From the IMG/VR virus record IMGVR_UViG_3300008113_000014, positions 44,864 through 108,863 of that record: 64,000 nucleotides of DNA. One strand, given 5' to 3'. The translations under genes and the position numbers were made by a program. Of the stretch, positions 21,704-50,333 are shown piece after piece; within the stretch, counting starts at the first letter, position 1, and the number at the start of each line of letters is the position of its first letter. Source of the stretch: a virus. The notes under the pieces were generated by a model that was not told where the DNA came from, made no database searches, and was given only the letters and a program-made list of their open reading frames with translations.

Positions 21704-21890
21704 AATAAGATTATTATATCATTATATAAGACAAAGTTCGGCGGGTGGATACAAAAAATTAAAGTGCTGCTTTTAAGTTTCGCCACTAAGTGAGTTGCAT
21801 TAAAGTCGTCGCCGAAATAGAGATATCAAACCATCACATAGACACACATGGATTGACACAATCCTAGCATGTCTGATACAATGGAATTCT

Positions 21891-22514
21891 ATGCTTGATG
21901 AAATCAAAAATGTTTTAATTGGTGGTTTGCTATCCAAATTGGCAATCCATCATTCTGTATATCGTTTACCTTGTACAAGTGAATATTTAGAAGAACTTGT
22001 ATCTGATGTGCTAAACGAAAACGGTATGCCAAATGACTGGAAGCCCGATAGAAGCCATAGCGTCAGTATAGACATGACTTTAGAGTCAGGACATAGTATA
22101 TCCGTCAAGTCAGGAAGATATGACCCAGTAAAAGGAACTCTTGTTATATCTGGATCTAGGCTAGGCAAACACGAAACATTAGAAAAGATGGTTGAGAGTG
22201 TTTCTTCTACACATGCTGATTACTATGTGTGTTTAGCCAAAGCAGACCAGGATTGGTCCTCTATACCGTCCAAAAATGAGATTAAGACATATCACCTATT
22301 TGTATTTGAAGCGTCAAACCTTGATTATGGTTTTGAGCATTGGTCAAGAAAAGAATCTAAGCATGGCAAAGGCTACAAATATGTAATGGAGATACCTGGG
22401 ATGTCAGCTACTATACGTCCTACTATGTCTCATCAGTTGTGGACTACTGTATCTTGTGATATCATTGGTATACCGTCCAAATTGGAAATTAACAACGACT
22501 TTGGAACATACTAA
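21891..22514 (+). CDS. Putative PD-(D/E)xK restriction-endonuclease-like protein
   Basis: E..LE..., SIDMT...ISVKSG spacing; promoter TTGACA-N17-TACAAT, leaderless. Confidence 0.45.
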   Translation: MLDEIKNVLIGGLLSKLAIHHSVYRLPCTSEYLEELVSDVLNENGMPNDWKPDRSHSVSIDMTLESGHSISVKSGRYDPVKGTLVISGSRLGKHETLEKMVESVSSTHADYYVCLAKADQDWSSIPSKNEIKTYHLFVFEASNLDYGFEHWSRKESKHGKGYKYVMEIPGMSATIRPTMSHQLWTTVSCDIIGIPSKLEINNDFGTY

Positions 22515-22727: not shown

Positions 22728-24408
22728 ATACTATTATCGTCCATCTGAAGCAATTCTTGATGACACATTGATTAAGATTAAAGGCAATGCTGACACAATT
22801 CGCATTGTAGTACAAGCAGAGTCACGTGATGAAGCTCTTGAGTTTGCTAAAGGAATTATTAATATGGCAAATTGGGAATTGGATCACTCAGAAGAGTAAT
22901 CTTCCCAAAACTTGTCTCTGCCCATATTGTCTGTATTAGGCATATGGGTAGATTCTTTTTCAGAGCAATTTATGCATACCGTTTCTGAAAAAATTTGTGT
23001 TTGAAGGTTGTTTGAATCCTCAAATTCTAAGTATGCTTCTAGGTTATCTAAAAATCCCACTGCTTAGACCCCTTTAAAAAATTATTCTGCTTCTGGTTCT
23101 GACCTGTGTGAGTTTTTACATGTGCACTCTGTGCAGCATCTGACAGGTAGCTTTGGTGCAGGTTCTGTTGTATTTTCCATAGATTCAGTATATCACAATA
23201 TGGTGAAAATCTGAAAAAAATTTGATTTAGGCAAAATCTGAATATTTCTTATCTGTGTATGATACATACATAAAGAAAATAAATACAAAAAAAATAGTGA
23301 GCACACAAGATGAATGCCCACTACCTAGCTGGATCTACTGCCACCTTTTGTTTTAGGTGTAGTACCCTATTCGCATTTGCAAGGGTCTATGCGTGTAGTA
23401 CCCTCATCAAAAATAATGATGCCAGTATCTCCACACGCCTCGCATGTGTGTGCGTACATGGCACTTATCATTTATTTACCTTAATGTCCATGACATTGGC
23501 TGAAAACTTTTTAACCTTGCCTAATTCGCTTTCGTTTAGTGATGCGATGAGGTGGTCAATAGCCTTAATCTCATGGGCGATGTTATCTATTGAAATTAAC
23601 TTAGAGCCTTGCCAAATTGAGTATTTGATTTCCATAATTAGTTTTCTTCTTTCGCTAGTAGGTGAGAGTTATTGAGAGGGCGTGATGATGATGAGAACAT
23701 AGCCTCAATCTTAGCCTTATCTTTTTCACGCTGAATTGCATAGCGTTCTTGTTGTTCTTTTCTAATTCGTTCTAGTGTATTCATTTAATGAGTACCTTTC
23801 GTTTTTAACTGTTAGCGATTTGCTAACCTTTTGCTGACCTAGGTTATTTGCCTACTATGTAGGGCTCACTAGGATTTGTGTTACTATTTAATTGTTATAG
23901 GAGTATCCTATCACATACCCTGCCAAAAGTCAAGGCGACACGCCGTTGGCGTGGTGTGATATAGGTCACGCTCCAAGCGTGAAGCATAGGATAACGGCTA
24001 TCGCTACGCCTACAAAGGCTCCAATTAGTCCGTAAGCGACATTCTCATCTAGGAAATCTTGTAGTGCTGTAAATGGGTTCATGTTAGTGACCTTTCGTTT
24101 AGTAGTTATATTTTAACTATCTAATACTGCAAGTATAACATGGATACCTGTCAAAGTCAAGTCCTGACACGGCGTGTCGCATGTGATGTCGCTCACATCG
24201 CCTCGGGCGACTTGTCAAATCAACACGCCGATCATTTTAAGATTGTTATGAGATTGTTATAGTTTTCCCATAAATGTGACCTACATCTCATGTGATACGG
24301 CTCACAATGTCCGAATTGGTAGCATTTTGGATTAGACATTTGTCAGACCCCCATGCTACAATTACAGTATAAAGAAAAACAAGCGGTAAAGAAATCCGCT
24401 AAAGAAAG

Positions 24409-24594
24409 GTGGTCACTATGACTACACTAAACACACTATGCAAGTGGCATGAGCCTCTTGTTTCCGCTATCTCAGAAATTGGAGATGAGCAATTTACACT
24501 ATGCATGAATTGCGATAGCAACATTGAGCGTTACTACTATGATAGTGACCCTGAGCAATTTCCTACATGGACAGATTGGTATGTGACTAAATGA
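24409..24594 (+). CDS. Small Cys-containing early protein
   Basis: Downstream of promoter 24341 and AAGAAAGG RBS; CxxC. Confidence 0.55.
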   Translation: MVTMTTLNTLCKWHEPLVSAISEIGDEQFTLCMNCDSNIERYYYDSDPEQFPTWTDWYVTK

Positions 24595-24773
24595 ACGACA
24601 CTATGCAATTTATAGATGAGCAAGGCTTATGCGCTATGGATAACATTTGCGCTTTCTGCATAACACTATTTGACGGGTGGAATAGATTTTGCCCTAGATG
24701 TAAGGACTATAAGGGCGTTATGGCTCTCCCTGATTTTATCAATACCTATGGAAAGGACGGACTCTCTAAATGA
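24591..24773 (+). CDS. Small zinc-finger-like protein
   Basis: CAFC and CPRC pairs. Confidence 0.6.
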   Translation: MNDTMQFIDEQGLCAMDNICAFCITLFDGWNRFCPRCKDYKGVMALPDFINTYGKDGLSK

Positions 24774-26284
24774 GTACCTTTGTTAATCTCCCCTCAGTAT
24801 GTGGGGCAACATCTGCAAGCGTAGATGTGTATGACTTAGACCTTAACCCTCATGGGGTTATCTGTTGTGACAATTGCAAATCAATTGTGTTATGCCGTAA
24901 GGCTTGGGACTACCTATACAAGGAGGCTAAGTAATGCCAGTATTTAATTTTGAGTTATTTGTAGATGTAGAAGCAGATGATTTTGAGTCTGCCTTATCAT
25001 GGCTAAAGGCTATGCCACTAGAGAGACAACTAGATTTCCATGTCATTGACTATAAGCAATTGGAGGCTTAACAAATGAAAAAAAATGTTTTAATTAGTTT
25101 TGTAACTGAAGCAGACACAGACCTTCAAGCAGTTTTTAATTTGAATAAAGTTTTTGCTAAACTTAGCGAAAACGAATTAGAAAAATTTAATGCGTTTGAA
25201 GTTTTACCTGTTGAATAAATAAAGCCAAGATCGCAGAAATAAAAACTCTGCGATTTTTGCCTCGGGGAGCTGTGTGATGAGTATCACAAAAAATAATTCT
25301 ACGACACGCCCGAAAAGGTCCCCAATTTGTCAGTGGTACCTGCTAGAATTGCTAGTATAAACAAAAAGAAAGGTCGTTAAATAAATGACACTAGATGAAT
25401 ACAAGGCGCTTGTAGAAGCGCAACGCAAGGCAAGCACCTTGCAAGCCATGTCCCTACTAAAGAAAGGCTCAGACAAATGAGCACTTTTGATAGAATACTA
25501 AAAGAGCAACAAGAAAAAAGAATTGCTCAATCAATAAAAGATAAAGCGGTTATTGAAGCCATGTTCTCCAATAACAATCGCCCCCTTAACAATAATCATG
25601 AATTAAAGAAAGTAGAAAACTAATGAAAACTAATTTTGAGATTTCTCAACAGATAAACACTCTTGCTAAAAAGCACTATGGAGACATGGACTTAGCATGG
25701 TCATGGGGTTGCGCCCAAGCACTACTAACTACACCACAGTTAGAGTTAATTCTAGGAATACTATTAGAGAAGGAGCCAGATAATGCCAGTATTTAATTTT
25801 GACATTTCTGTTACCATTGAGGACGATAATTTTGAGTCTGCTTTATCATGGTTAAAAGTTATTCCATTGGAACGACTTGATTTTATTGTTGTTGATTATA
25901 CAGAATTGGAGTTAGACTAATGCTGGTTGTTTTAATTGCTATCACTTCATTTGCTTTTGTAATTTGGATGCATAACGGAGCATAATAAAAAAAGATCACA
26001 GAACTAAAAAGCTGTGATTTTTGCTCGGGCGTTTTCCACAGGCTGTGTATAACTTATGTGTTTAAGGTCACACAAAATCTTTCCCATTTTACGGCGTGTC
26101 GTTTTGACTTCCTGAAACTTATCTGGTATCCTTGTAGGTATAACAATTAAATAAAGATAAATCAGGCAGTGAGCCTAGCAAATAAATGTGACGAGTATCA
26201 CAGTGAGCCTAGCGAATAAATGCCAAGATTTGTCAGCCCCCCGTGATAGGATAGTCTTATCACTTAAAGAAAGGAAGTCTATAA

Positions 26285-26482
26285 ATGACTTACACTATAA
26301 CACTAGAAACCTTTAATGGTTCTACTAAAAAAATCAACCTTGCCTCTAAGGGTGCGGTTGCTCAATTCGTATCACAATACCCAACACAATTACCTGTTGG
26401 CGTATCTGTAAAAATCGCTTGCGATACTCTTGGAATAAGTGGCACACTTCGTGGCACTTCTACACTAACAAAAACAAACTAA
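26285..26482 (+). CDS. Hypothetical early protein
   Basis: Follows promoter 26231 and AAGGAAG RBS. Confidence 0.65.
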   Translation: MTYTITLETFNGSTKKINLASKGAVAQFVSQYPTQLPVGVSVKIACDTLGISGTLRGTSTLTKTN

Positions 26483-26501
26483 AGAATAGGAAATAAAATA
26501 A

Positions 26502-26705
26502 ATGAAAATTGAACACAATCTAAAATTCGTAACTGAATTTGCAGAGGGCCACCCTGTAACTGCAACAGTAATGGCACTTGATGAAAGCACTCGTATCCTT
26601 ATGCTAGAGTCAATGCTAAAAGATTTGGTAGGCTCTCGCCTGCAACCTATCCTTGATGAAATAAATGCTGGTGGGTCCTATGCAATTCTAAAGGTGGCCG
26701 AATAA
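26502..26705 (+). CDS. Hypothetical early protein
   Basis: RBS and operon context. Confidence 0.6.
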   Translation: MKIEHNLKFVTEFAEGHPVTATVMALDESTRILMLESMLKDLVGSRLQPILDEINAGGSYAILKVAE

Positions 26706-26905
26706 TGATGACTCGTAAAGACTATGTAAAAGTTGCCGAAATTCTTAGCAACTATTTTGCTACATCTGTTTTTGATGAACAAGGAGAAATTTTATTTGCT
26801 GATTTGGTAGATGAATTTTCTCTAATGTTTGAAACTGATAACCCAAGATTTGACTCTGACAGATTTGCTATTGCTTGCTATAAAGAATTGGAGATGTCAA
26901 ATTGA
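26705..26905 (+). CDS. Hypothetical early protein
   Basis: MTRKDY...DNPRFD..RF..AC pattern common in small phage proteins. Confidence 0.7.
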   Translation: MMTRKDYVKVAEILSNYFATSVFDEQGEILFADLVDEFSLMFETDNPRFDSDRFAIACYKELEMSN

Positions 26906-27057
26906 TTTTAGATACTGGAACACTAATCGCAATCGTAATTGCACTTGGCGGATCTTTAACAGTTATGTGTTTATTTTGGAAACAAAATATTGCACAACAA
27001 AAAGAAATTCGCAGATTACAAATTTTATTGCGAACTGAGCGACTAAAATAAAATAAA

Positions 27058-27087
27058 AGACCTGAGCATGTCTGTGCAAAACTGCTT
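27058..27087 (+). ncRNA. Mini H-type pseudoknot repeat, copy 1
   Basis: AGAC-CTGAGCAT-GTCT-gtgcaaaac-TGCTT. Confidence 0.55.
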
Positions 27088-27324
27088 GATCCTTTTAAAT
27101 AAAAAAAGCTCGGGGGTTTTTCCACAGGCCTTTGTGGATAACTTTACGTGGTTGTGATTTTTCTCACATTTGTTGAGCGTCTCATTATTTAAGACTACTC
27201 ACTAGTAGGTTGATAAATTATGATTAACAGGATAGACTTACATAGTAAGAAAAAATAAATAACCGAAATTTGTCAGACCCTAGTGGTAGGATAAATAAAT
27301 AACAACAAAGAAAGAGGTTGGCAA

Positions 27325-27537
27325 ATGTCAGCAAATGTCTATTCAATAGAAAACCTACTTGTAGGAAAAACTTATCACTCACGCACTTTAACAGGCGAAA
27401 TCATAGATGCAGAAAAGTCTGATGTCTTTTATGGCTCAGGCTTAGAAAGTTATCGTGTTCAGGTTCGCCCACACTATCCTTCAGTATTTAATCTAAAGGA
27501 CACTTATCGTATTCTATCAGTAAAGGTTGGAGAATAA
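27325..27537 (+). CDS. Hypothetical early protein
   Basis: Follows promoter 27271, GAGG RBS. Confidence 0.65.
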   Translation: MSANVYSIENLLVGKTYHSRTLTGEIIDAEKSDVFYGSGLESYRVQVRPHYPSVFNLKDTYRILSVKVGE

Positions 27538-27541
27538 ATAA

Positions 27542-27733
27542 ATGGGAAACTTACTAGACTTTTTGGTTGATTGTGTTGATTGCCATGATGAGGGTGTCCT
27601 CTTTTTTGGTAATGGTGGCGAGGAATACGACTCAGAATTTTGCGATTGCGCTAAAGGCGTGTCGCTTGAAAATGAATACTGTGCATGGTATGCTGAAAGT
27701 ATCATGAACGAAAACTATAAGGAGAATAACTAA
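27542..27733 (+). CDS. Small zinc-binding protein
   Basis: CVDCHDEG...FCDCAKG. Confidence 0.65.
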   Translation: MGNLLDFLVDCVDCHDEGVLFFGNGGEEYDSEFCDCAKGVSLENEYCAWYAESIMNENYKENN

Positions 27734-27951
27734 TGAACGAATACCTATACTCAGTTACTTGTACCTATGACTCAGATACCTCCACCACTTGGGTAGGGCG
27801 TTATAGTGACGCTTTATCTGCCGTTGAAAGTTATCAAAAGTTTATTGACCATGGACTTGCTAAAGAATACTCAACAATTAACTTGTCTGAACCTTCAGGC
27901 AAGATGCACACAAAAACTTTCTACAAAACAGGATTGGTGGTAACACGATAA
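27733..27951 (+). CDS. Hypothetical protein
   Basis: TAATG coupling, GGAG RBS. Confidence 0.65.
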   Translation: MNEYLYSVTCTYDSDTSTTWVGRYSDALSAVESYQKFIDHGLAKEYSTINLSEPSGKMHTKTFYKTGLVVTR

Positions 27952-28274
27952 TGGGACACAATACAGCGATTGACTTAGCAGAAAACATTGACATAAGCCT
28001 TGAACAGGCTATCGGTTATCACTTACAGGGTAATCACTACCCACCCGTACCGCTAAGCATGGTTCAGCCTTGCATTGAGGCGTTAGACGCTGCACGAGAA
28101 ATGGACGCCATGCGCCAGATTGAAATGCCTGAAGGCATAACCTATAAGGGCAAAACTCATGCACCAGCATGGGCTATCATTGAACAACACCACTTGGACG
28201 CTTGGTTGCCACAAGATGAGGCAGACTATTGGGAAGAAGATGCAGGCTATGAATCAGGATTAGGTTTAGAATAA
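27951..28274 (+). CDS. Hypothetical phage protein
   Basis: HLQGNHYPPVP...IIEQHHLDAW; coupled start. Confidence 0.7.
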   Translation: MGHNTAIDLAENIDISLEQAIGYHLQGNHYPPVPLSMVQPCIEALDAAREMDAMRQIEMPEGITYKGKTHAPAWAIIEQHHLDAWLPQDEADYWEEDAGYESGLGLE

Positions 28275-28348
28275 ATGAGTACTTTTTTTATTCCACACTC
28301 AAAGTATTGCGATTGCCCAGAGTGTTTAGACATGGAGGAACAGAATAA

Positions 28349-28582
28349 ATGAGTGCTACAATTATTGACATGGAACTTGTAAAAGCTGATTCTCTAACTG
28401 TTGATGCGTTAGAACTTGGCGATCTAATTGGTTATGGTGATGAGATTGTTGAAGTAACTTTTATTGAATGTGATTCAACGGGAGATAACTATGACATTCA
28501 AATTGTAAATGATTTTGGTGAAAAAGAAATTGTTCAGTTTGCATTTGATGAAGAAGTTGATTGGTACGTTTATTTAGATTGA
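28349..28582 (+). CDS. Hypothetical acidic protein
   Basis: GGAGG RBS; SH3-like beta pattern. Confidence 0.6.
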   Translation: MSATIIDMELVKADSLTVDALELGDLIGYGDEIVEVTFIECDSTGDNYDIQIVNDFGEKEIVQFAFDEEVDWYVYLD

Positions 28583-28808
28583 AAAACGCCCGAGGGGGCC
28601 CTGTGAGATTCATCACATTTACGAGATTTGATATTTTTCCCCATATCTGGTAAAATTATTACATGAAGAAAAATGCTGAGGAATTAAGACGCCTAATGGA
28701 ATTACGGCGATCTAATGCAGCCTCCGCTGTTCCAAATAAAAAAAAGTATGATAGAAAAAAATGTCAGTCCCTTATGCTAAAATTAAAGAAAGAAAGCGAG
28801 TAGCCACC

Positions 28809-29531
28809 ATGTCAAAATTACTTAGAAGCAAAGATAGGAAAGTAGCAAATGCAGTTACACCAAATGGAAAACAAGCAAGTATCGCCAACACTTTCGGATT
28901 ACCCGCAGGCAAGGCTTATTCATGTCCTGGAGCGACTAGCGTATGCGAGAGTGTTTGTTATGCTGGCAAGCTTGAAAAAGTATTCCCAACAGTAAAGAAA
29001 AACTTATTGCACAATTGGGAATTAGTTAAAGACGCAGACCATGACACTATTGAAGCATTGCTTGAAGACATGATTAGTGAGTTTATTGCAGACTGCAAAA
29101 AGAAAGACGCACCCATGCTATTCCGTATCCACTGGGACGGGGATTTCTTTAATGACACTTACACATTCGCATGGAAGCATGTCATTCTTAATCATCCTGA
29201 AATTCAATTCTGGGTTTATACAAGAGTTAAGTCTGCAGCGGTAATGCTTAAGGACATTGATAATCTATCTTTATACTATTCTACAGATAGTGAGAATAAG
29301 TCTATTGGCGTTACCCTGAAAAAAGATCATGGTATTCGTCTTGCATACCTTGCTAAGAATTTCTTAGTAGGACAAGCAGACATGAAAGAGATGATAGGCA
29401 AGGTAGGGGCTAAGTGTCCTGAGAATAAAAAGGCTATCCCACTTATCTCAACAAATGGTTCGGCTTGCGTTTCTTGCTCATTGTGTGTATACTCAAAGAG
29501 TGACATAGTATTTTCATCAAGTAAAAAGTAA
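28809..29531 (+). CDS. GP88-family (radical-SAM-like) protein
   Basis: FGLPAG...CPGATSVCESVCYA, FRIHWDGDF, FWVYTR, C-terminal CPE...CVSCSLC; start corrected to MSKLL. Confidence 0.75.
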   Translation: MSKLLRSKDRKVANAVTPNGKQASIANTFGLPAGKAYSCPGATSVCESVCYAGKLEKVFPTVKKNLLHNWELVKDADHDTIEALLEDMISEFIADCKKKDAPMLFRIHWDGDFFNDTYTFAWKHVILNHPEIQFWVYTRVKSAAVMLKDIDNLSLYYSTDSENKSIGVTLKKDHGIRLAYLAKNFLVGQADMKEMIGKVGAKCPENKKAIPLISTNGSACVSCSLCVYSKSDIVFSSSKK

Positions 29532-29719
29532 GGAGATAAATGGAAAGCCTATTTATCCTATTAGTAATGGGGTTATTAGTGTTTATGATTTACCAATAAG
29601 TGACTTACATCACACCCGTAAGCGTCTCAAATAGTGAGAAATACAAGAAATGGAGTTGAAAAATGTCAGTAGGAAATGTTATACTTAATACATACAACAA
29701 ACTAAAAAGGAGAAACAAC

Positions 29720-29884
29720 ATGACAGTAGCAAATACATACAAGGTAGGCGACCTCTACACATCACAGAAGTCAAAGGTAACAGGAACAATTCTTGAAATC
29801 TCACCTACTGCAAAGGACACAGTTCGTGTTAAGTTAGATGTTAATGGTAACACACGCTGGACAACATGGAAAGCGCAATCGTAA
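29720..29884 (+). CDS. Small SH3-like protein
   Basis: AAGGAG RBS before ATG 29720; YKVGD...G.I.EI. Confidence 0.6.
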   Translation: MTVANTYKVGDLYTSQKSKVTGTILEISPTAKDTVRVKLDVNGNTRWTTWKAQS

Positions 29885-29910
29885 TCTAACAAGCCAGTTA
29901 GATAGTAACT

Positions 29911-29940
29911 CAGACCTGAGCAAGTCTGCTAAAACTGCTC
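29911..29940 (+). ncRNA. Mini pseudoknot repeat, copy 2
   Basis: CAGAC-CTGAGCAA-GTCTG-ctaaaac-TGCTC. Confidence 0.6.
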
Positions 29941-30003
29941 ACACAAAATGTCAGACCTAACCCCTATACTATAAATAAACCACCAAAGAAAAGAGAAAAA
30001 CAC

Positions 30004-30426
30004 ATGGCACGACAAAAAGCAATCTCAGTAAAGATAGCAACACCAAAAGTAATCAAGGCACTAGAAACTGCACTAGCAAAGTTAGAAGCAGACTACGCAT
30101 CACAAGAAGCAAACGAGGCTAAGTATGAAAAGACTCGTAAGGCTTGGCTAAAAGAAATGCAAGACTACGCTATTGCTAACATCAAGAAGGCAGAGAACTT
30201 TCGCACCAACTATCGTTCATGGTCAAATAATCTTAACATTGACTTTGACTTAACAGTTAGCGAAAAGGATTTGCCTAAAGAGCCTGAGAAGGACTTTGAG
30301 ACAATTCATGTTCATAGTTATCGTGAGCAGAAAGAGGAAATCTCTAACGCAATTCGTATTCTAAAGATGACAGATGAGGAAACAGTTTCCACATCAACTT
30401 ATCAAGCGGTTGCTCGTTATCTGTAA
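30004..30426 (+). CDS. Hypothetical coiled-coil protein
   Basis: Follows promoter 29949. Confidence 0.75.
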   Translation: MARQKAISVKIATPKVIKALETALAKLEADYASQEANEAKYEKTRKAWLKEMQDYAIANIKKAENFRTNYRSWSNNLNIDFDLTVSEKDLPKEPEKDFETIHVHSYREQKEEISNAIRILKMTDEETVSTSTYQAVARYL

Positions 30427-30462
30427 ATAATTTGGGGGGCAACTTAAAGTCCTAAACCCAAA

Positions 30463-30552
30463 CAACCTAAGCAAGTTGCAAAACTGCTTCACTAAAGTTA
30501 CTGCCAGTGCTATAGCGAGGCAGACGTTCCTGAGCATGAATTGAAAAGGCTC
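30463..30552 (+). ncRNA. Mini pseudoknot repeat, copies 3 and 4
   Basis: CAAC-CTAAGCAA-GTTG-caaaac-TGCTT (30463-30489); GTTC-CTGAGCAT-GAAT-tgaaaag-GCTC (30526-30552). Confidence 0.55.
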
Positions 30553-30696
30553 ACTTTTTGCCCCCGAGCTCATGTGAATTTGATCACACCCTTTACGTAC
30601 CACCATTTAAGATCCCTGGATTTACGATTGGCATTTGTCAGTCCAACCTGCTAGAATTATATTAATATCAGAACAACAGAAAGAAGGAAGCCCCCA

Positions 30697-31194
30697 ATGG
30701 GACTAGACATGTACCTAAGTGCTAGAAAGCATTTTGAAAAAATCAACTGGCAAACACTACAGGCTAATGATGAATTATCTTACAATTCACCTGAAGCCGT
30801 ATATCCTAAGTTCAATGACCTAATGGCATTGACACAACTCACAAATGTTGCAACAGATATTTATGGAGCAGAAGTAACAGTTACTTGTGCCTACTGGCGC
30901 AAGGCTAATCAGATACACGCTTGGTTCGTAAAGAATGTTCAACATGATGTTGATAACTGCGGAGACTACTATGTCTCACAAGATAAACTAATAGAATTGC
31001 TTGCACTATGTAAGCATGCCCTAGCAACAAAAGACCCTAGCCTATTCCCACCACAAGCAGGGTTTTTCTTTGGTGGTACAGATATTGATGAATGGTATTG
31101 GCGTGACCTTACTGATACTATTAGTCAATTAGAGCGTATCTTTGCGCTACCAGAAATTGATAAGTTATCATTTTTTTATTCATCATCTTGGTAA
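30697..31194 (+). CDS. Conserved phage hypothetical protein
   Basis: MGLDMYL...YWRKANQIHAWF...LFPPQAGFFFG...FFYSSSW pattern. Confidence 0.8.
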   Translation: MGLDMYLSARKHFEKINWQTLQANDELSYNSPEAVYPKFNDLMALTQLTNVATDIYGAEVTVTCAYWRKANQIHAWFVKNVQHDVDNCGDYYVSQDKLIELLALCKHALATKDPSLFPPQAGFFFGGTDIDEWYWRDLTDTISQLERIFALPEIDKLSFFYSSSW

Positions 31195-31258
31195 TTGACA
31201 TTTGTCAGTGCCATACCCTATAATTAAACTAACCAACAAACAGAAAGAGGTAGCCCTC

Positions 31259-31696
31259 ATGGACCAGCAACAAATTCCACCAGTAGTAAAAACAGATAAT
31301 CACTACATGACACGAGAGTTTTTAGAAACTACTCTTGTACAAAACAAAACACGGATAGATGAATTAGAAAAGCATATCCAAGTCGTAACACAACGCTCAT
31401 ACGGCGAGGCTGCAGAGCGCAACCGTATGCGTACTGAAATGCAAGAGTGGACTTTTGAAGCAATTGAAGCAGGCACACTCAATGAGTCAGAAGGACAAGA
31501 AATTGCTGACATCTGTGGCTTTGAACTTACAAAAGAATTTGAAGTTGAAGTTACAGTTATGTATTCAGTTACAGTGAATGCACGAAATGAAGAAGAAGCA
31601 CAAAATGCAATTCACGATATTGATTTTGATACTGTAGATTACAATTCAGATTCAATTCAATACCTATCATCTTCAATTGATAGAGTAGATATTTAG
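31259..31696 (+). CDS. Hypothetical acidic protein
   Basis: GAGG RBS before ATG 31259; V.ARNEEEA motif. Confidence 0.7.
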   Translation: MDQQQIPPVVKTDNHYMTREFLETTLVQNKTRIDELEKHIQVVTQRSYGEAAERNRMRTEMQEWTFEAIEAGTLNESEGQEIADICGFELTKEFEVEVTVMYSVTVNARNEEEAQNAIHDIDFDTVDYNSDSIQYLSSSIDRVDI

Positions 31697-31711
31697 TAGG
31701 GGGCTACTAAT

Positions 31712-31738
31712 GGACCTGAGCATGTCCTTAAACTGCTT
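31712..31738 (+). ncRNA. Mini pseudoknot repeat, copy 5
   Basis: GGAC-CTGAGCAT-GTCC-ttaaac-TGCTT. Confidence 0.55.
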
Positions 31739-31917
31739 TATTTTTATTTATGCCGTTGCATAAAAATGCAGCTCGGGGGCGTGACCAAGATCACACTGTG
31801 TTTTACGACACATTAAAAAAATGTCCATTTTTTCCCATTTTCAACTATCCTGATTTGCATTTGTCAGACCCATTGTGTATAATTAAATTAACTACAAAAG
31901 AAAAGGAAAAATAACTC

Positions 31918-32934
31918 ATGGCACATGAACTAGAAACACAAAATGGCGTAGCAAGTTTTGCCTCATTTCGTGAACCTGCTTGGCATGGATTGGGTACTGT
32001 ATTCACAGAGGAAAAAACCACAAAAGAAATGTTAGATTTGGCTAATCTTTCTAATTGGAATGTTCGTCTTGAGGATTTGGAAACCCCTTCACATTTAACA
32101 AGCGACAAAAACTATCAGTATGTTTTGCGTACTAACCCTACAGATACAACACAGACAGACATTTTAGGTGTCGTTGGTGAGCGTTATCATGTTATGCAAA
32201 ACGAGGATTTATTCTCATTTGGCGATAACATTTTAGATGGTGGTGGTCGTTGGGAAACGGCTGGCTCAATCAAGGGTGGTCGTGTCGTATTTGGTGCGTT
32301 AGCACTAGAGCGTGAAACTATTCTTGACCCTAATGGTGTTGCAGATAAGGTAAAGACTTATTTGCTCATCAATACATCACATGACGGCTCAATCGCTATT
32401 CAAGCAAGCATAACACCTGTTCGTGTTGTGTGCGCTAACACTCTTAATCTTGCGCTTAACACTACAAAAAAGAAAAATGGCGTTAAGCAATCTTTCAAGA
32501 TACGCCATACACAAACTGCAAGCGGTAAGGTTGCCGTTGCTCGTGAAACTCTTGGGCTTGCTCATAAGTACATGGACTCTTTTGACCTCATGGCTAAGGC
32601 TATGATTGAAAAAGAAATCAATGCTACACAATTCAATGACATCATTTTGGCTGCCTATCCAAAGCCTGAAAAGGACTCTAAGGGTGCTTTCAAGAAATGG
32701 GAAAACAAGGTAGATGTTATTAACGACATTTACACAGGCGAGTTTAACGGCATGATTGCTGGTAACGCTTGGGGTGCTTTCAATGCACTAACTGAACGCC
32801 TTGATTGGTATCGTTCTGCTCGTGGTGGTTCTAACGAATCTATCCTTGCAAGCGCAAGCGGATTTGACCCTGCTATTAACGCAGAAAAAAATCGTTTGCT
32901 AAAAGTTGTGCAAAATGTTTTGCAAATTGCATAA
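31918..32934 (+). CDS. DUF932 / TIGR03299-family protein
   Basis: MAHELE...REPAWHGLG...LGVVGERY..QN...ETAGS..GG...SHDGS...TPVRVVCANTL...GNAWGAFNALTE. Confidence 0.9.
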   Translation: MAHELETQNGVASFASFREPAWHGLGTVFTEEKTTKEMLDLANLSNWNVRLEDLETPSHLTSDKNYQYVLRTNPTDTTQTDILGVVGERYHVMQNEDLFSFGDNILDGGGRWETAGSIKGGRVVFGALALERETILDPNGVADKVKTYLLINTSHDGSIAIQASITPVRVVCANTLNLALNTTKKKNGVKQSFKIRHTQTASGKVAVARETLGLAHKYMDSFDLMAKAMIEKEINATQFNDIILAAYPKPEKDSKGAFKKWENKVDVINDIYTGEFNGMIAGNAWGAFNALTERLDWYRSARGGSNESILASASGFDPAINAEKNRLLKVVQNVLQIA

Positions 32935-32941
32935 CTAAAAA

Positions 32942-32969
32942 AAATCCTGAGCAAGATTTAAAACTGCTC
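32942..32969 (+). ncRNA. Mini pseudoknot repeat, copy 6
   Basis: AAATC-CTGAGCAA-GATTT-aaaac-TGCTC, 4 nt upstream of tRNA-Asp. Confidence 0.6.
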
Positions 32970-32973
32970 GCAA

Positions 32974-33047
32974 GGTTCCATAGATCAATTGGTTAGATCG
33001 CTACCCTGTCACGGTAGAGGCTACGGGTTCAAGTCCCGTTGGAATCG
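32974..33047 (+). tRNA. tRNA-Asp (GTC)
   Basis: Acceptor GGTTCCA/TGGAATC, anticodon arm CTACC-ctGTCac-GGTAG, T arm GGTTCAAGTCC. Confidence 0.93.
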
Positions 33048-33155
33048 CAAGCTTAAGTGGGCCCCGAGGAAATTAGTACAAAACGGACATTTAAGAAACT
33101 ATATAAATAATCTCAGAAAATTTAATTACGACAGACTTGCTTTTTTCCCAGTTTT

Positions 33156-33407
33156 TTGCTACAATTAATTTATGACTACCACAGGAGAAAAATAATGGAA
33201 CAATTCATAGATACACTAGCAGAGCACATTACAGGTGCTATCCAACAAGAAATAGCAGAAGAACTATTTGACCAATGGTCTTACAATAATTTAGAGGAAG
33301 GTGAGGACTATGCAGAAAACAAATTCATGCAATACGCCTCAGATGAATTAAAGCAACAGTATAACGAATACTATGGGTACATAGAGGGAGATGAATTCCT
33401 ACTATGA
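33156..33407 (+). CDS. Hypothetical acidic protein
   Basis: Probable start MEQF after AGGAG. Confidence 0.6.
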   Translation: MLQLIYDYHRRKIMEQFIDTLAEHITGAIQQEIAEELFDQWSYNNLEEGEDYAENKFMQYASDELKQQYNEYYGYIEGDEFLL

Positions 33408-33793
33408 TTACCTCTCAAGAACTAATTGATTATATGTATGACGATAACCTAATACATTTTGACGACAGAGATACATCAGATGATTGTGATTGCCACATTC
33501 ATATAACACTACAAACTATGATTAAATATATGGAGGCAATTGAATGCTAGGTTATACCATTGATGATTTAGATAAGATGAGCAATGCTGTACACAATGCA
33601 TACAAGCATATCACTGACCCTGATGATAAAGAGGGTATTTTAATGGCACAACAATTTCTCCAGGGCCTATGGGCAGAAGGGTACTTTGACTAATGACACT
33701 AGACGATGTATTAGATAAGATTGAGGCTATCATTGATAGTACTCATTCTGTTGTATCCCCGCTAAAAATGGATCACTGCAAGTACTGTACCAC

Positions 33794-34039
33794 TTGGCTT
33801 ACTCTGACAGAGGAGTTAAACTAATGTGGACTAAATATGATTATCTATGTACTGACTGTGATGCTCTTATTGAGGTCACTACCCTGCAAGATCTGAGACG
33901 AGATGTCTATGGCTCTTGTCCCTGTGGATCTAATAAGACAATTAACATTGGGGTAGGAGATGCCTCTCGCCATGAAGAACCTGTGACGAACATCACACCT
34001 GTCAGACTTGTCAAAATCAACAGCAACCCCTATAATTGA
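33794..34039 (+). CDS. Zinc-ribbon protein
   Basis: YDYLCTDC...CPCGS; probable start MWTKY. Confidence 0.6.
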   Translation: MAYSDRGVKLMWTKYDYLCTDCDALIEVTTLQDLRRDVYGSCPCGSNKTINIGVGDASRHEEPVTNITPVRLVKINSNPYN

Positions 34040-34211
34040 TATATGGACCTAAATACATTAAGAGAGTATATAAAAATTCACCTAATTTCATTGGAGCAAG
34101 ATGTTGAGGACGCTAACAATGATATTCCTATTAGTGATGATGAGCACTATGAAGCAGACCTTTATTACGAGGGAGCAATCGCTACCTGTGAACACCTATT
34201 GGAGTATATAA

Positions 34212-34487
34212 ATGGATAATCTAACATTAGAGCCGCACCTACAACGTATGGTAGACGCAGGGGTATCAGGAACAGACATCCTGCACGGAGAGCTTAAGAA
34301 CCTTATGCTAATGGCAGAGCAAGAACTAGCAGAGGCTAGCGAACGTGAGCAGGAAACAGAAGAGGCTATGGACTCTATGGTACGCACAGAAGCAGAAGGA
34401 AGACTAGACGCCTTAGTAGCAGTATATAATCTAACATATGCCTTGTCCTTTGCTATCTCTGACCGTATGAAGTTGACAAACCAATAG
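34212..34487 (+). CDS. Hypothetical protein
   Basis: GGAG RBS, helical acidic ORF. Confidence 0.65.
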   Translation: MDNLTLEPHLQRMVDAGVSGTDILHGELKNLMLMAEQELAEASEREQETEEAMDSMVRTEAEGRLDALVAVYNLTYALSFAISDRMKLTNQ

Positions 34488-34533
34488 GGTTGCTGTAAAA
34501 TTATATTAAACCACCAAATAGAAAGAGACCGCC

Positions 34534-35229
34534 ATGCCAAACTGGGTATATAACGGATTAACCATTGAGGGTAATCCTGATTCCGTAAAGAAGTTAATGG
34601 AGCAGATGAATACACCATTCGTTCGTGTCCATGATAACTGGAGCACTGAGACACAGCAAATGCAAAAGCAACAGGTGACATATCCAAACCCTGTCTTTGC
34701 TTTCTGGAACATTGTTAAGCCTACTAATCTAGAGGCATATGATGGTCCTCAACCAACCAACACAGACTTAGCACAAGCAATGCGATTTGAGTCAGACCAT
34801 TGGTACGACTGGAATGTTCGTAACTGGGGTACCAAGTGGGATGTAGCCGTCTCATCTGTTGATACTCATCCTGATACATACATGGAAGATACTGTTAATG
34901 GTGAGAACCATGTCGTCTACTATAATTTTAATACCGCTTGGTCTCGCCCAATGCCTGCACTAATTAAACTATCTAATCAGTACCCTGACTTGCTATTTAC
35001 TTTATCATATGAGGAAGAAACTGGCTGGGGTGGAGAGTTAGAACTCTTGCGTGGAGAAATTATCTCAGAATCAGAATATGACAACATGTGCCGTGAATGT
35101 GACGGTACATACGAAAACAGTGAACTTGTTGAATGTAGCGACTGCGGATACCATCTATGCCCACACTGTGGCTGGAGCAATGATATGTGTGAGACCCACC
35201 AAAAGACCTATGAGGAGAAGCATGCCTAA
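34534..35229 (+). CDS. DUF1281/YubB ferredoxin-like domain protein with C-terminal Cys cluster
   Basis: MPNW..N.L...WYDWNVRNWGTKWD...FNTAWSRP; CxxC repeats at C-terminus. Confidence 0.8.
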   Translation: MPNWVYNGLTIEGNPDSVKKLMEQMNTPFVRVHDNWSTETQQMQKQQVTYPNPVFAFWNIVKPTNLEAYDGPQPTNTDLAQAMRFESDHWYDWNVRNWGTKWDVAVSSVDTHPDTYMEDTVNGENHVVYYNFNTAWSRPMPALIKLSNQYPDLLFTLSYEEETGWGGELELLRGEIISESEYDNMCRECDGTYENSELVECSDCGYHLCPHCGWSNDMCETHQKTYEEKHA

Positions 35230-35525
35230 GACTACTTATCTTATTGAACTATGTGTTGATGAAAAATGGTATGAGGCCATTAGCACGCTAACCGCTGATG
35301 TATACGAGGATGAAGTATGCGAATGGGTCAGGGTACAGGCAGAGACTGAGACTGATGATCAAGACTGTGAGAACTGTGAAGAGAACCCTAAAGAGCACCC
35401 TGAAGGCAAGTGGTGTACCTCCTGCAGGGATGACTTTAAAGAGTCAGATGAGGACGACGAATGAACTGGACACAATTGACACTATTTGATATACTGGAAG
35501 AAACTACTACAAAAGGAGAAACACC

Positions 35526-35894
35526 ATGGGAGCAAGAATAAATTTTGTATTTAAAGACGCAGAGGCTGCTGTAGGGGAGCCCACATCATCTGTTGTACTT
35601 TACAGCCACTGGGGCCAGGACGGATGGGAAGTTGACATTGCCAAAGCTTTAGAACATGCCAAGCCCCGCTGGAATGATTCATCATACGGGACCAGAATGA
35701 TTATTAGTTATCTTATTCAAGATAGCATTCTAGACGAAACGGGTTTTGGAATCTATTCAATCCGTGGAACTAACTATGACCTGGGGGAGCAGACAGTGGT
35801 TATTGATTTTGTTAATAAGACTGTTACTGATAACGTTCCCGTCAAATGGGATAAGTTTATCCAAGCATATTTACCTGAGCACGCAGTAGTATAA
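35526..35894 (+). CDS. Conserved phage hypothetical protein
   Basis: MGAR.N...LYSHWG pattern; AAGGAG RBS. Confidence 0.7.
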   Translation: MGARINFVFKDAEAAVGEPTSSVVLYSHWGQDGWEVDIAKALEHAKPRWNDSSYGTRMIISYLIQDSILDETGFGIYSIRGTNYDLGEQTVVIDFVNKTVTDNVPVKWDKFIQAYLPEHAVV

Positions 35895-35974
35895 TCATAC
35901 TGCAACGGGGGAGTGCGATTTGTGGTGGGTTGCGCTCCCCCCTTATTTTTGATACAATTAGGTAAGGGAGAACC

Positions 35975-36184
35975 ATGAGAAAAAAACTAATCACAAAAGA
36001 GGAAAAGGTAGCAATCCAACTATCCAATGTCTTAGCAGACCTACGCCTTGACCTTGACATGGTAGGCAAGTATTTGGTACAATTATCACCTAATGTAATT
36101 TATAATCGTTTAATCGTAATCGCTGACTCAGCCCAAGCAGAAAAGGAACAACAGTATGACCACTACCAATACAGACTATTCTAA
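35975..36184 (+). CDS. Hypothetical protein
   Basis: AAGGGAG RBS. Confidence 0.65.
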   Translation: MRKKLITKEEKVAIQLSNVLADLRLDLDMVGKYLVQLSPNVIYNRLIVIADSAQAEKEQQYDHYQYRLF

Positions 36185-36422
36185 AAAGATAGAAATCTTA
36201 AATGACATTTGGCTTAACCATTCCGATAACGAATTTTTTGAGTATTTTATTGAGACTAATGATTTAGGTTTACCAATGGCTCACTTTATTTTTCAGGGTA
36301 TAGTAGAGTCCACCCCATTAGCAAAAGAACTAATAGATCAATCATTTGCTGACCTATTAGAATTGTTTGAGTATGAGGACGAAGGCTTTGAGGCACTAAC
36401 TGATTTTTGGGGTTTTGCATAA
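36156..36422 (+). CDS. Hypothetical protein, paralog of 49774-50076
   Basis: IL..IW...F..FIE.NDLGLP.A shared. Confidence 0.7.
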   Translation: MTTTNTDYSKKIEILNDIWLNHSDNEFFEYFIETNDLGLPMAHFIFQGIVESTPLAKELIDQSFADLLELFEYEDEGFEALTDFWGFA

Positions 36423-36480
36423 AATCTTTCATAAATAAAAGCTGACTTGACAAAAGCCCCTTCGGGGCCCCGAGAGATTT

Positions 36481-37336
36481 TTATCAAACCATAAAACCTT
36501 ATTACGATCAAACCTTTTCTTTCCCCAAATTTGACATTACGAGCAACCAAAAAATTTTCCAGATTCATGGATATTACGACAGCTGTAGAATTTTCCAGAT
36601 TCTAGCATATCAAACCTTCTTTGTCAAACCATGTTATAATAATCTTATGGGAAGAAACTATTTTTCAAAGCATGGTGGACCTTACTTTAAGAACGATGGG
36701 TTCTCTCAACACTCTCATTCCCATGATGATCCACATGATATCAAACCAGACTATGTATCTATCTTTATAGCTGTAGGGTTTGTTACTATGACAGTTTCTT
36801 TACTTATAGTAACCATACTTCTTTAGATCCCCCGCCATAACGCATCAAATAATCCTGTTAGACATTACGATCAACGCTTTAGCGTCCCCGTTTTTGACGG
36901 GGGATATATATAAACCATACACCAAATACCCCCTATAGAATAACAAACCTTTTCTCCTGGTTTTGGATATGTTATTAAATATTATCAAACCTTTCTATTA
37001 TATTATTGGACATTATGGGCAATTTTGTATATGTTTTTATATAGCTTTTAAACTATAAAGGTTTGACAAATAGAGGTTTGTATGATATGATCCATGCCAG
37101 ATGTGAGGTTTGAAGAAAGGTTTGTAAGGTTTGAAGGTTTGGTATGTGAGGTTTGAAAGCCGTGGACATTACGACGCCATCTATAAAAGTGCTCAATTCT
37201 CCACTATCCTCCACTTCCCTCCACCCAAACCATATATTAAAAATATCAGTAAGATCTAATTGTGGATAACCTGTGGATAACTATGTGTAAAACACTAATT
37301 TACGCTATCCAAATTATCGTTTCTACTGTGGATAAC
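36481..37336. other. Putative replication origin (iterons, AT-rich core, DnaA boxes)
   Basis: CAAACC repeats on the left, AGGTTTG repeats on the right, ATTACGA repeats, CTCCAC x3, TGTGGATAA at 37261, 37272, 37327. Confidence 0.6.
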
Positions 37337-37517
37337 TTCTATATTGGTTTGCATATAGATGTGTATTTCAAAAACGGTACAGCTCTTTGGCTATGGGGCA
37401 TATCCTCAAAGCCAGGTGTTATTACCTGGTGTATTTACTATAGGGGTAATGGGGTCTTTCTTGACATACCGTTCAAAATTTAAACAATGCTATAATTGAT
37501 GAAAAGAAGGAGCAACA

Positions 37518-37868
37518 ATGGCATTTCCAGTAATATATGATTTTGATTGTTATGAGGGCGATACTCATACATTTAATGTTGTTGTAAAAGGTTTAAATGA
37601 CACCAACTTCCTTGCACTTGCCAGAGCTGGAACAACTTATACATTTTCAATTGCTAACGAAAGAAGTGCAAGTGCCTCTTTTAAAACTACTGGATATATC
37701 ATAGCTACTACAGACTTAATTTCATGCACTATAAGTGGATCTCTTACTCCTGGGCAATACGTATATTCTGTTAGACAAAATCAACCAGCCTTTGGTGGCG
37801 GATTAGCCCTAGTCTACACCTTTGTTACAGGAACAATAACTGTTAAGAGTAAGGTTCCATCAATTTGA
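37518..37868 (+). CDS. BppU-like beta protein
   Basis: YDFDCYEGDT...PGQYVY...TFVTGTITV; AAGGAG RBS. Confidence 0.55.
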   Translation: MAFPVIYDFDCYEGDTHTFNVVVKGLNDTNFLALARAGTTYTFSIANERSASASFKTTGYIIATTDLISCTISGSLTPGQYVYSVRQNQPAFGGGLALVYTFVTGTITVKSKVPSI

Positions 37869-38123
37869 AAACAATAGAAGTTAACCAAGCAATACAAACC
37901 ATTACAGTTTATATAATTGCAGATACAGTATCTGCAAAACAAAATGTTCCAGTTATTACTGCTTATCAGTATTAATATATACTTTATTTGACTTCCCCGC
38001 AAAAATAGGGTATGCTTGTTTTATGAAGAAAAACGAATGCCAAAAATGTGAGATGAGTCACAAAGATCCCATCTTCTGGGATACTCATCAAACCATGTCA
38101 GATGGAAGGATCTGGTGTACTAA

Positions 38124-44614: not shown

Positions 44615-45739
44615 CTATAAGCGATTGATCTGCTTGTTTATAAACTCCAAGAATTTACCAGTAATTAGTGCAAACCCTAGCTCAGGCTTAGCATTAACAC
44701 ATTCTGGACTGACTATATACTTTGCCCACTCCTTTACAGATGCCTTGTTCTTGCCTGCTGTATCTGCTAAAAGGTAGGATACAATCCCTAGAGGGTATGC
44801 TCCAGCCTCTTTGGTAGAGTAGTCGTAGGTAAGTATATTGTTTGAGTCTATTGAGGCTTCTCCAAGGAATGCTGATACATTTGCGCTATTAGGCTCAACA
44901 AAGTTACCAGAAGCATTTCCTATGTTTGCCACCTTAAGGTTAAAGAACTTGGCAAAAGAAACCTCTGCATATGTAATAGAATACTTAGTCTTTGATGCAA
45001 GTGTTGCTACACCCTGTGACTGATTTGCTCCAGAGATTCTTCCTATGTTATTTACATCATTAATGTTATTTGGAAATGATGTTGAAAATGAATCAGAGAC
45101 GGGCTTAGTCCATGTATTAGGAGAAAAGGCCTTCATATATCTAACAAAATTATTAGTTGTGCCAGAGTTATCTAGTCTAAAAATAACTTTAATTTTTTGG
45201 TTTGGCATAGTGTATACAATGCTTTTGGTTGACGTTCTTAATACTACTGGGCTGCCAGCCTTATCTTTAATTAGATTACCAGTTGCATCTTTCTTATATA
45301 CTACCTCTTTAATTTTTCTATTGTTGTCAGCCTTAATAGCAGGATCATTCCACATTGTTATTTCTCCCGCAAAAATCTTAGCGACTGTAGTTGATGATAG
45401 ATAAACCTGTCTGTTACCTGGCAGGTTGTGCATAACGGCAATAGGTGCTGCAACTACTGGAATATGAATAATTGATGGCTTCTTAGTTGATGCAGTATGA
45501 GCTGAGTCTGAAAACCAGAAATCACCAATGCCTTTGTCAGATGAGGTCTTGCCAGCACCAGAACCGTTGGCTGAGTATGTTACTAAATTGCCTGTGTTCC
45601 TAGCATAAGATGATCTGCATTCGTCAATGAGGTTGGCTGGGAAAGATGCACCATTGCCAACAATATTTTCTGCTGCAAAGGCTGGGGTAGAAATAGATAG
45701 AGCAGCAACTACTGCCATTACGATAAGTTTAATTCTCAT
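44615..45739 (-). CDS. pstS: Phosphate ABC transporter substrate-binding protein
   Basis: Signal peptide; G.GASFP, Y...GSGAG, DF..SD, IFAGEITMWNDP.I, R.D.SGTT, YPLGIVSY. Confidence 0.92.
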   Translation of the reverse strand: MRIKLIVMAVVAALSISTPAFAAENIVGNGASFPANLIDECRSSYARNTGNLVTYSANGSGAGKTSSDKGIGDFWFSDSAHTASTKKPSIIHIPVVAAPIAVMHNLPGNRQVYLSSTTVAKIFAGEITMWNDPAIKADNNRKIKEVVYKKDATGNLIKDKAGSPVVLRTSTKSIVYTMPNQKIKVIFRLDNSGTTNNFVRYMKAFSPNTWTKPVSDSFSTSFPNNINDVNNIGRISGANQSQGVATLASKTKYSITYAEVSFAKFFNLKVANIGNASGNFVEPNSANVSAFLGEASIDSNNILTYDYSTKEAGAYPLGIVSYLLADTAGKNKASVKEWAKYIVSPECVNAKPELGFALITGKFLEFINKQINRL

Positions 45740-49774: not shown

Positions 49775-50076
49775 TATTTTTTATCTTTTCTATCTACAAA
49801 GTTAAAGATATCTTCCAATGATTCCCAGCCAAGATCTTCAACAACTTCTAATGCTGCTAAAAATATGTCCCAGGTTTCATATACATATTGTTTAGCTAAC
49901 TGTGTTGGCTCTACAAGCTCATTATCAATTAAAAATGCAATAGGCAAACCAATATCGTTATACTCAATAAAATCTTTAAAGTATTTATCATTCTTATAGT
50001 CCATCCATAGTTCACCAAGAATTGAACAGATTGATTCAAAACTACTTACTTGGTGTCCATTGTTAGAGTTTTCCAT
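49774..50076 (-). CDS. Hypothetical protein, paralog of 36156-36422
   Basis: ILGELW...FIEYNDIGLP. Confidence 0.7.
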   Translation of the reverse strand: MENSNNGHQVSSFESICSILGELWMDYKNDKYFKDFIEYNDIGLPIAFLIDNELVEPTQLAKQYVYETWDIFLAALEVVEDLGWESLEDIFNFVDRKDKK

Positions 50077-50333
50077 ACTTCACCCCACTGCTCCTTTGTT
50101 CTATGCTTACTAAACTCTCTAGATATTTCGCCATTTTCTAAGTATATACCGCCCCAAATTCCCCACTCTTTTCCTGATACTCCATTAGCAAAGCATACTT
50201 TTTGAACTGGACAGGCCTGACAAAGATTATCTATTATTGGTCTGATTAGTTCATCATCTTCATATTTATCAAAAAATAAATTTGTATCCATATCAAAGCA
50301 GGCGCCATTATCTTTCCATAGGTGCTGCTCCAT
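50046..50333 (-). CDS. whiB: WhiB-family Fe-S transcription factor
   Basis: W...GAC......FF...CQACPVQKVC...GIWGG. Confidence 0.92.
   Translation of the reverse strand: MEQHLWKDNGACFDMDTNLFFDKYEDDELIRPIIDNLCQACPVQKVCFANGVSGKEWGIWGGIYLENGEISREFSKHRTKEQWGEVWKTLTMDTK

Follow-up and report, generated by a model that had tools for sequence, protein, structure and literature searches.

An array of ten phage promoters matches the box of the actinobacterial DNA-damage activator PafBC and is probably served by the host's own protein

The stretch of viral DNA analysed here (the window, 64,000 nucleotides) comprises bases 44864-108863 of the 108,863-bp IMG/VR record IMGVR_UViG_3300008113_000014, which CheckV rates as complete, and our subject is an array of ten promoter-like sites of the form TGTCAG-N10-TANNNT that lies within it; positions are those of the window. 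The phage genome has a guanine-plus-cytosine (GC) content of 37%. Its minus strand carries the replication and structural genes, and its plus strand carries small open reading frames (ORFs) across 21,900-47,300. The phage shares 54% identity with the Streptomyces phages BillNye, Wakanda and Jay2Jay in the DnaE-type polymerase and 44% with Streptomyces phages in the capsid protein, and it has a WhiB-like gene, which is a marker of actinobacteria and their phages. Judged by these sequence resemblances, the phage is an actinophage. The block that carries the array gave no match when compared by megablast with 50,697 phage records, and most of the proteins encoded on its plus strand are orphans that belong to no family in Pfam or PHROGs. 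Ten further plus strand proteins compared with the same two collections were also orphans, except for an HNH endonuclease and a TauD-like oxygenase.

An exact pattern search returned ten sites in the window, all on the plus strand and all within 7.5 kb (24341-31883; P1 to P10 in Table 1), and these are the same ten that had been listed in a first-pass annotation made from the sequence alone. The chance level is far lower: over 100 dinucleotide-preserving shuffles the number of matches averaged 0.83 and never exceeded 4. The full 108,863-bp genome holds the same ten sites only, and the pattern written backwards, used as a control, occurs once. Relaxing the box to TGTCRG added no further site in the window. 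Boxes with one mismatch, and spacers of 9 or 11 nt, occur in the phage at background level only; the sole exact TGTCAG with another spacer on the plus strand (N9, at 42956) also looks like background.

The geometry of the sites is strict. The box, with its invariant GTC triplet, reads TGTCAG at all ten, and the gap between the box and the −10 hexamer is 10 nt throughout. It had been proposed that the length of this spacer is fixed and its sequence free to vary, and we find the same in the ten sites and in alignments of orthologous promoters. Past every site, 19-60 nt from the −10 hexamer, come a purine-rich ribosome-binding site and an ORF; the placement ahead of a ribosome-binding site and an ORF is again as first described. 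An extended −10 (TGn) is present at seven of the ten sites, and a −35-like hexamer (at least four of six matches to TTGACA, with 18-nt spacing) at five, namely the two already named in the first-pass annotation (at P1 and P9) and three more. By its distance from the −10 hexamer, the box would lie at −28 to −23 relative to the transcription start.

Table 1. Promoters and genes discussed in the text (window positions; TGn, extended −10).
Feature	Position	Strand	Description
P1, TGTCAG-N10-TACAAT, TGn	24341..24362	+	TAGACA at 24333; heads small ORFs 24418-25218
P2, TGTCAG-N10-TAGAAT, TGn	25328..25349	+	heads small ORFs 25385-25920
P3, TGTCAG-N10-TAGGAT, TGn	26231..26252	+	heads ORFs 26285-27051
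P4, TGTCAG-N10-TAGGAT, TGn	27271..27292	+	heads ORFs 27325-28582
P5, TGTCAG-N10-TAAAAT, TGn	28762..28783	+	heads GP88-family gene (~28809-29531; PF17338)
P6, TGTCAG-N10-TATACT, TGn	29664..29685	+	TTGAAA at 29656; heads ORF 29720-29884
P7, TGTCAG-N10-TATACT	29949..29970	+	heads ORF 30004-30426
P8, TGTCAG-N10-TAGAAT, TGn	30636..30657	+	TTGGCA at 30628; heads ORF 30697-31194
P9, TGTCAG-N10-TATAAT	31203..31224	+	perfect TTGACA at 31195, 18-nt spacing; heads ORF 31259-31696
P10, TGTCAG-N10-TATAAT	31862..31883	+	TTTGCA at 31854; heads DUF932 gene 31918-32934, then tRNA-Asp
Canonical promoter, TTGACA-18 nt-TACAAT, TGn	21853..21882	+	ATG 8 nt past −10, leaderless mRNA predicted; first of plus strand block
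207-aa orphan protein gene	21891..22514	+	type II restriction-endonuclease (PD-(D/E)XK) fold, predicted; candidate immediate-early nuclease
PstS phosphate-binding protein gene	44615..45739	-	used for host placement
WhiB-like gene	50046..50333	-	PF02467, 42 bits; marker of actinobacteria and their phages

The same arrangement is found in related phages. IMG/VR contains 390 relatives of the DUF932 protein encoded behind P10, with identities of 90-99%, and in 80 close-relative loci fetched for counting (1.34 Mb) the motif occurs 604 times in the forward and 52 times in the reverse direction. In related phages, at about 125 loci, box and −10 hexamer are conserved and the spacer is variable; likewise, in alignments of the regions upstream of orthologous genes, box and −10 are kept while the sequence between them differs. 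The logo of the relatives can be written as A-W-W-TGTCAG-n-S-S-N4-TGn-TAnAAT-T, preceded by no more than a weak TT..aA. Of the relatives' 431 unique sites, 419 have TGTCAG as the box and 12 have TGTCGG, so that position 5 is A in 97%. CpG is depleted in the phage (1647 against 3771 expected, a ratio of 0.44), in keeping with a preference for TGTCAG rather than TGTCGG. In four complete relatives there are 8-13 sites per genome, in one block and on one strand, where controls give 0-1. In a sister lineage, whose version of the 207-aa protein is about 64% identical, there are 91 forward and 18 reverse matches (controls, 4 and 4), and the sites begin 2-4 kb downstream of the gene for that protein. 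The ORFs of the block are themselves conserved among the relatives.

Metatranscriptome contigs from four lake studies cover the block unevenly. The contigs of three of these studies begin at 29686-29688, directly past the −10 hexamer of P6, and this is a weak hint of a transcription start at that promoter, given that contigs can provide neither starts nor strand. Contigs of RNA from relatives show a further feature of the block, in that a promoter may be joined to the ORF of another cassette (for example 24358/29998 and 25372/27325), and in that divergence from the present genome can begin exactly at a TGTCAG box (29949). It appears that cassettes of small genes are swapped with the promoters as their limits.

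The first-pass annotation had equated the motif with the consensus recognized by PafBC at RecA-independent (RecA-NDp) promoters, and the equation holds, as the ten sites match the published consensus tGTCgg(N10)tA(N3)T, with its invariant GTC and its box at −28 to −23 (PMC8635444). PafBC inserts between region 4 of SigA and the DNA and reads the −26 element (PMC8635444). It joins the polymerase only once it is bound to single-stranded DNA (ssDNA); single-stranded RNA (ssRNA) is inactive (PMC11804915). The trigger, first given as single-stranded nucleic acid, is thus correct for DNA and incorrect for RNA. A phage-encoded mimic of PafBC outside the window had also been suggested, and here the search went the other way: at E<=1, the whole phage genome has no match to WYL (PF13280), HTH_PafC (PF19187), Sigma70_r2 (PF04542) or Sigma70_r4 (PF04545).

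To place the host we used the PstS phosphate-binding protein of the phage. Beyond many phage copies, identity to PstS drops to 57-58%, and the best 80 cellular matches (51-59% identity) all belong to Candidatus (Ca.) Planktophila, Nanopelagicaceae or other actinobacterial assemblies, which by their titles come largely from lakes and rivers. The PstS gene of this freshwater actinophage is an auxiliary gene derived from a host. Taken together, the WhiB-like gene, the likeness to Streptomyces phages and the PstS matches point to an actinobacterium as the host, and PstS makes a member of the acI group (Ca. Planktophila / Nanopelagicaceae) the most likely candidate. This replaces the mycobacterial setting of the first-pass annotation with a lake bacterium. 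In metagenomes, the phage PstS falls into more than 100 near-identical clusters.

The absence of PafBC-like proteins from candidate hosts had been named as an outcome that would count against a role for PafBC. All five of the genomes nearest to the phage by PstS encode a tandem pair of WYL proteins, of about 310-340 aa each. In Ca. Planktophila versatilis (G001) one of the two is PafC, with HTH_PafC (108 bits), WYL and WCX domains. The other matches over its full length (8e-34) the Mycobacterium smegmatis PafB of the RNAP-PafBC structure 7P5X, and it keeps both arginines with which PafB reads the GTC triplet, R46 and R50 ('eRmfeRdk'). Of 61 genomes sampled from the host family, 58 encode an HTH_PafC domain. 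GC makes up 47% of the host DNA that was sampled.

The candidate hosts also carry the box itself. Upstream of recA, in all five PstS-nearest genomes, cTTGTCAGTGGCnccTGcTACCTT abuts the LexA box TCGAACAGATGTTCGG; the PafBC-type box is TGTCAG in four of them and TGTCGG in one. The same box precedes carD in four of the five. With the boxes at recA and carD, the candidate PafBC proteins with their DNA-reading arginines and the WhiB-like gene of the phage, the actinobacterial setting that was first proposed holds up. The pattern has 12-17 matches per host genome, compared with 6-12 for the control, and in 20 of the 32 unique ORF-oriented host sites only 6-8 nt separate the −10 hexamer from the start codon, so that the message would be leaderless. 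As this arrangement is typical of actinobacteria, it marks the host sites as real promoters. In total, the box is found at recA, carD and about a dozen other host genes, most of them leaderless, which include genes for C5 and N6/N4 DNA methyltransferases, a trypsin-like protease, a tetratricopeptide repeat (TPR) protein and small orphans. Several flank preferences are common to host and phage, namely A at −3, W at −1, T at +6, G or C only at +7, and T after the −10 hexamer.

A side observation concerns the distribution of these sites in the hosts. PafBC-type promoters are clustered in one host island (loci L191-L220; examples are G005:C1:411676-432683 and G004:C1:926209-990547), where they head leaderless genes for DNA methyltransferases of the C5 and N6/N4 types, a trypsin-like membrane protease, a small protein resembling a zinc ribbon, and orphans of 115 aa. 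Such a cluster suggests that the control exerted by PafBC in acI bacteria also extends to an island of restriction-modification or defence-like character.

On the strength of these comparisons we consider, with a probability of roughly 0.7, that the ten phage promoters are served by host PafBC through sigma adaptation. The SigA RNA polymerase of the host and its activator PafBC would read the sites together, the helix-turn-helix of PafB contacting the GTC of TGTCAG at about −26 and SigA recognizing the TAnnnT −10 hexamer. As PafBC would join the polymerase only when ssDNA is bound, the appearance of ssDNA in the infected cell would switch on or boost the block, with its roughly 30 small orphan genes and the genes of the GP88 family and DUF932. 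Possible sources of this ssDNA include phage replication or recombination, the resection of DNA ends, and damage to host DNA. We infer both the binding of PafBC at the phage sites and the timing at which they fire, and the label 'early' given in the first-pass annotation is an assumption. The extended −10, the near-consensus −10 hexamers and, at some sites, the −35-like hexamer make it probable that most of the promoters also have a basal activity that is independent of PafBC. As a whole, then, the interpretation first offered for this block finds partial support in the sequence comparisons.

A number of observations weigh against PafBC as the reader of the array. The recA match is limited to the five PstS-nearest genomes, as 28 others sampled from the host family have a GCGTGTC element before the LexA box of recA without the N10-TAnnnT geometry. 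At +7/+8 the phage favours CC, whereas the hosts and mycobacteria favour GG or TG. Textbook PafBC promoters have no −35 element, whereas a −35-like hexamer is found at five of the ten phage sites and TGn at seven, and with these elements the phage sites could work without PafBC. The assignment of the host within the actinobacteria comes from a single gene, PstS, at 51-59% identity. In BillNye and Jay2Jay, the cultured relatives from Streptomyces, the motif has 0 and 2 matches against 2 and 5 for the controls, from which it follows that it is a trait of the lake lineage and not of the family to which those phages belong. Finally, the small orphan proteins of the phage could hide a DNA-binding factor of a novel kind.

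The strongest of the competing accounts takes the ten sites to be plain SigA promoters, with extended or near-consensus −10 hexamers, at which TGTCAG is kept for another purpose, either as the site of a repressor or shut-off protein or as a boundary for the recombination of cassettes. It draws on TGn at seven of the ten sites, on −10 hexamers close to TATAAT and on the −35-like hexamers at half of the sites, and the cassette shuffling that is visible where RNA contigs of relatives join or diverge at promoters (24358 to 29998; 29949) would suit a recombination boundary. However, a non-palindromic hexamer held at a strict 10-nt gap is what would be expected of an element of the initiation complex and not of an operator, and near-miss spacings are absent from the phage. 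In the hosts, moreover, leaderless genes lacking both TGn and a −35 hexamer are driven by the same arrangement. We therefore think that an array of unaided SigA promoters is unlikely.

Phages often supply their own activators of middle genes. T4, for example, has its own activator for redirecting promoters (PMC8635444), and a phage factor of a novel family might in the same way read TGTCAG at −26 and redirect the host RNA polymerase as MotA/AsiA does in T4. Such a factor would be made from canonical promoters or carried in the virion, and the likeness of the array to PafBC promoters would be mimicry or coincidence. A canonical promoter class does lie upstream of the TGTCAG block, and with most of the plus strand block proteins being orphans of no family there is room for such a factor. 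Yet the genome encodes no WYL, HTH_PafC or sigma domain, the single upstream protein that has been folded is nuclease-like and not HTH-like, and the host uses exactly the same box and spacing, so that a second reader would be superfluous; a novel phage activator is, in our view, quite unlikely. Very improbable is the idea that the array is a sink, in which boxes on replicating phage genomes draw ssDNA-activated PafBC and its polymerase off the damage-response and methyltransferase promoters of the host and the transcription of small genes is secondary: 7.5 kb of phage DNA does hold about as many boxes as a whole host genome (12-17 pattern matches; controls 6-12) and host boxes do stand before genes for DNA methyltransferases and a protease that share one island, but every phage box is rightly placed before a ribosome-binding site and an ORF, and the ORFs are conserved in relatives, so that their expression is under selection and a sink could at most be an addition.

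Promoters with a perfect TTGACA and 17-18 nt spacing occur in the phage at 21853, 34473, 36054 and 37063. The TGTCAG class, at 24341-31883, lies between these canonical promoters and is thus set apart as a separate regulatory group. Directly behind the first of them is the gene for the 207-aa orphan protein, for which no sequence family was found in Pfam or PHROGs. An AlphaFold2 (AF2) model of this protein has a predicted local distance difference test (pLDDT) score of 85, and its best VIA-align match is 3ndh_B, 'Restriction endonuclease in complex with substrate DNA' (Z 9.2, 168 residues), followed by EcoRV, SwaI, NhoI, SfiI and BglI. Foldseek gave weak matches only (NhoI, PvuII, DpnI), and Atlas gave a weak hint to the ThaI and SmaI families. 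We take 3ndh_B to be ThaI, an enzyme that cuts CGCG. A conserved D61...S71-V-K73 is also present in the 207-aa protein, and resembles the SxK variant of the active site that occurs in Cfr10I.

The 108,863 bp of the phage contain no CGCG, no CCGG and no TCGA, against expected counts of 32, 39 and 78. In host DNA the three sequences occur at normal counts, with one of them about every 100 bp. GGATCC is found once in the phage, against 19 expected. CGCG and CCGG are scarce in all relatives, and TCGA is absent from 15 of the 80 close-relative loci and normal (about 1 per kb) in 65, which is a strain-level difference. The possibility that TCGA is avoided as self-protection from the phage nuclease is weakened by these 65 of 80 loci, which have normal TCGA though the nuclease-like gene is conserved; to judge from its distribution, the absence of TCGA looks like the result of pressure from host restriction systems rather than of self-protection.

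The nuclease-like protein and the array could be parts of one cascade. The leaderless SigA promoter at 21853 would yield the nuclease-like enzyme as the first product of the plus strand, and, with no CGCG, CCGG or TCGA in the phage, this enzyme could cut host DNA and spare that of the phage. Broken host DNA would then be resected, the resulting ssDNA would activate host PafBC, and the ten TGTCAG promoters would fire as a second wave. This sequence of events is possible but doubtful, and we offer it tentatively.

Two other features of the region deserve mention. Thirteen TGTGA-N6-TCACA palindromes (CRP/GlxR-type, with at most one mismatch) lie within 23955-38047, on both flanks of the promoter block, and the core GTGA-N6-TCAC occurs 12 times genome-wide compared with about 1.1 in shuffles. 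A box of this type is centred 36-74 nt upstream of seven of the ten TGTCAG promoters, at a distance that is not fixed, and each of the five candidate host genomes encodes one Crp-family regulator of about 230 aa. Further downstream, the gene for the HNH endonuclease (38542-38991, plus strand), whose N-terminus is weakly like a WhiB-like PHROG, is adjoined on the opposite strand by a TauD/TfdA-family dioxygenase gene (39183-40010, minus strand).

PafBC and sigma adaptation are so far known only as a switch for host repair. Our search of the literature on PafBC/RecA-NDp and phages found no report of phage promoters of the PafBC class; a 2025 study by Rafique et al. in ACS Infect Dis, cited in PMC12848934, reportedly deals with pafBC and mycobacteriophage resistance. 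If our reading is correct, this would be the first phage, in the literature searched, to use a WYL-type ssDNA sensor as an activator of its own programme. It would allow phage genes to be timed without any phage-encoded regulator and would tie infection to the damage response of the host. The lineage is a very abundant lake phage, with about 390 relatives in IMG/VR, and acI hosts are among the commonest freshwater bacteria. Because the box, the spacing and the DNA-reading residues are conserved, the claim is well suited to the published M. smegmatis in vitro transcription system.

Several known systems share single aspects of the proposed arrangement. BrxR, CapW and Caulobacter DriD are ssDNA-sensing WYL proteins through which transcription is tied to DNA damage or infection. 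They regulate host genes, however, BrxR and CapW mostly as repressors, and in the literature searched we found no phage that uses BrxR, CapW or DriD for its own promoters. Phage genes under LexA boxes, as in prophage induction modules, likewise couple phage expression to the DNA-damage signal of the host. In that case the coupling is through loss of a repressor, by RecA-dependent cleavage of LexA, whereas the present phage would be under positive control by an ssDNA-binding WYL activator; unlike LexA-coupled phages, it has no LexA box in the promoter block (the single core match in the genome lies far outside) and no TCGA anywhere. The middle promoters of T4, with a MotA box at −30 and AsiA, are similar in that a class of phage genes has a box in place of the −35 element, at a fixed distance from a normal −10. 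T4, however, supplies its own activator and remodels region 4 of sigma, whereas no activator was found in the present phage, whose box is that of its host.

The closest counterpart is the promoter class of the Actinobacteria themselves, that is, the PafBC/RecA-NDp/recA P1-type promoters (PMC8635444, Mueller et al., 2021; PMC11804915, Schilling et al., 2025). The phage set differs from it in belonging to a lytic-type phage, in standing ten in a row and in heading small orphan genes rather than repair genes, and also in having A at position 5 of the box in 97% of sites, mostly an extended −10 and, in half of the sites, a −35-like hexamer. What the two share is the TGTC(A/G)G box with its invariant GTC, the N10 spacer and the TAnnnT −10 hexamer, with the phage box at the position of the −26 element, and in the candidate hosts PafB and PafC are both present, with the arginines that read GTC.

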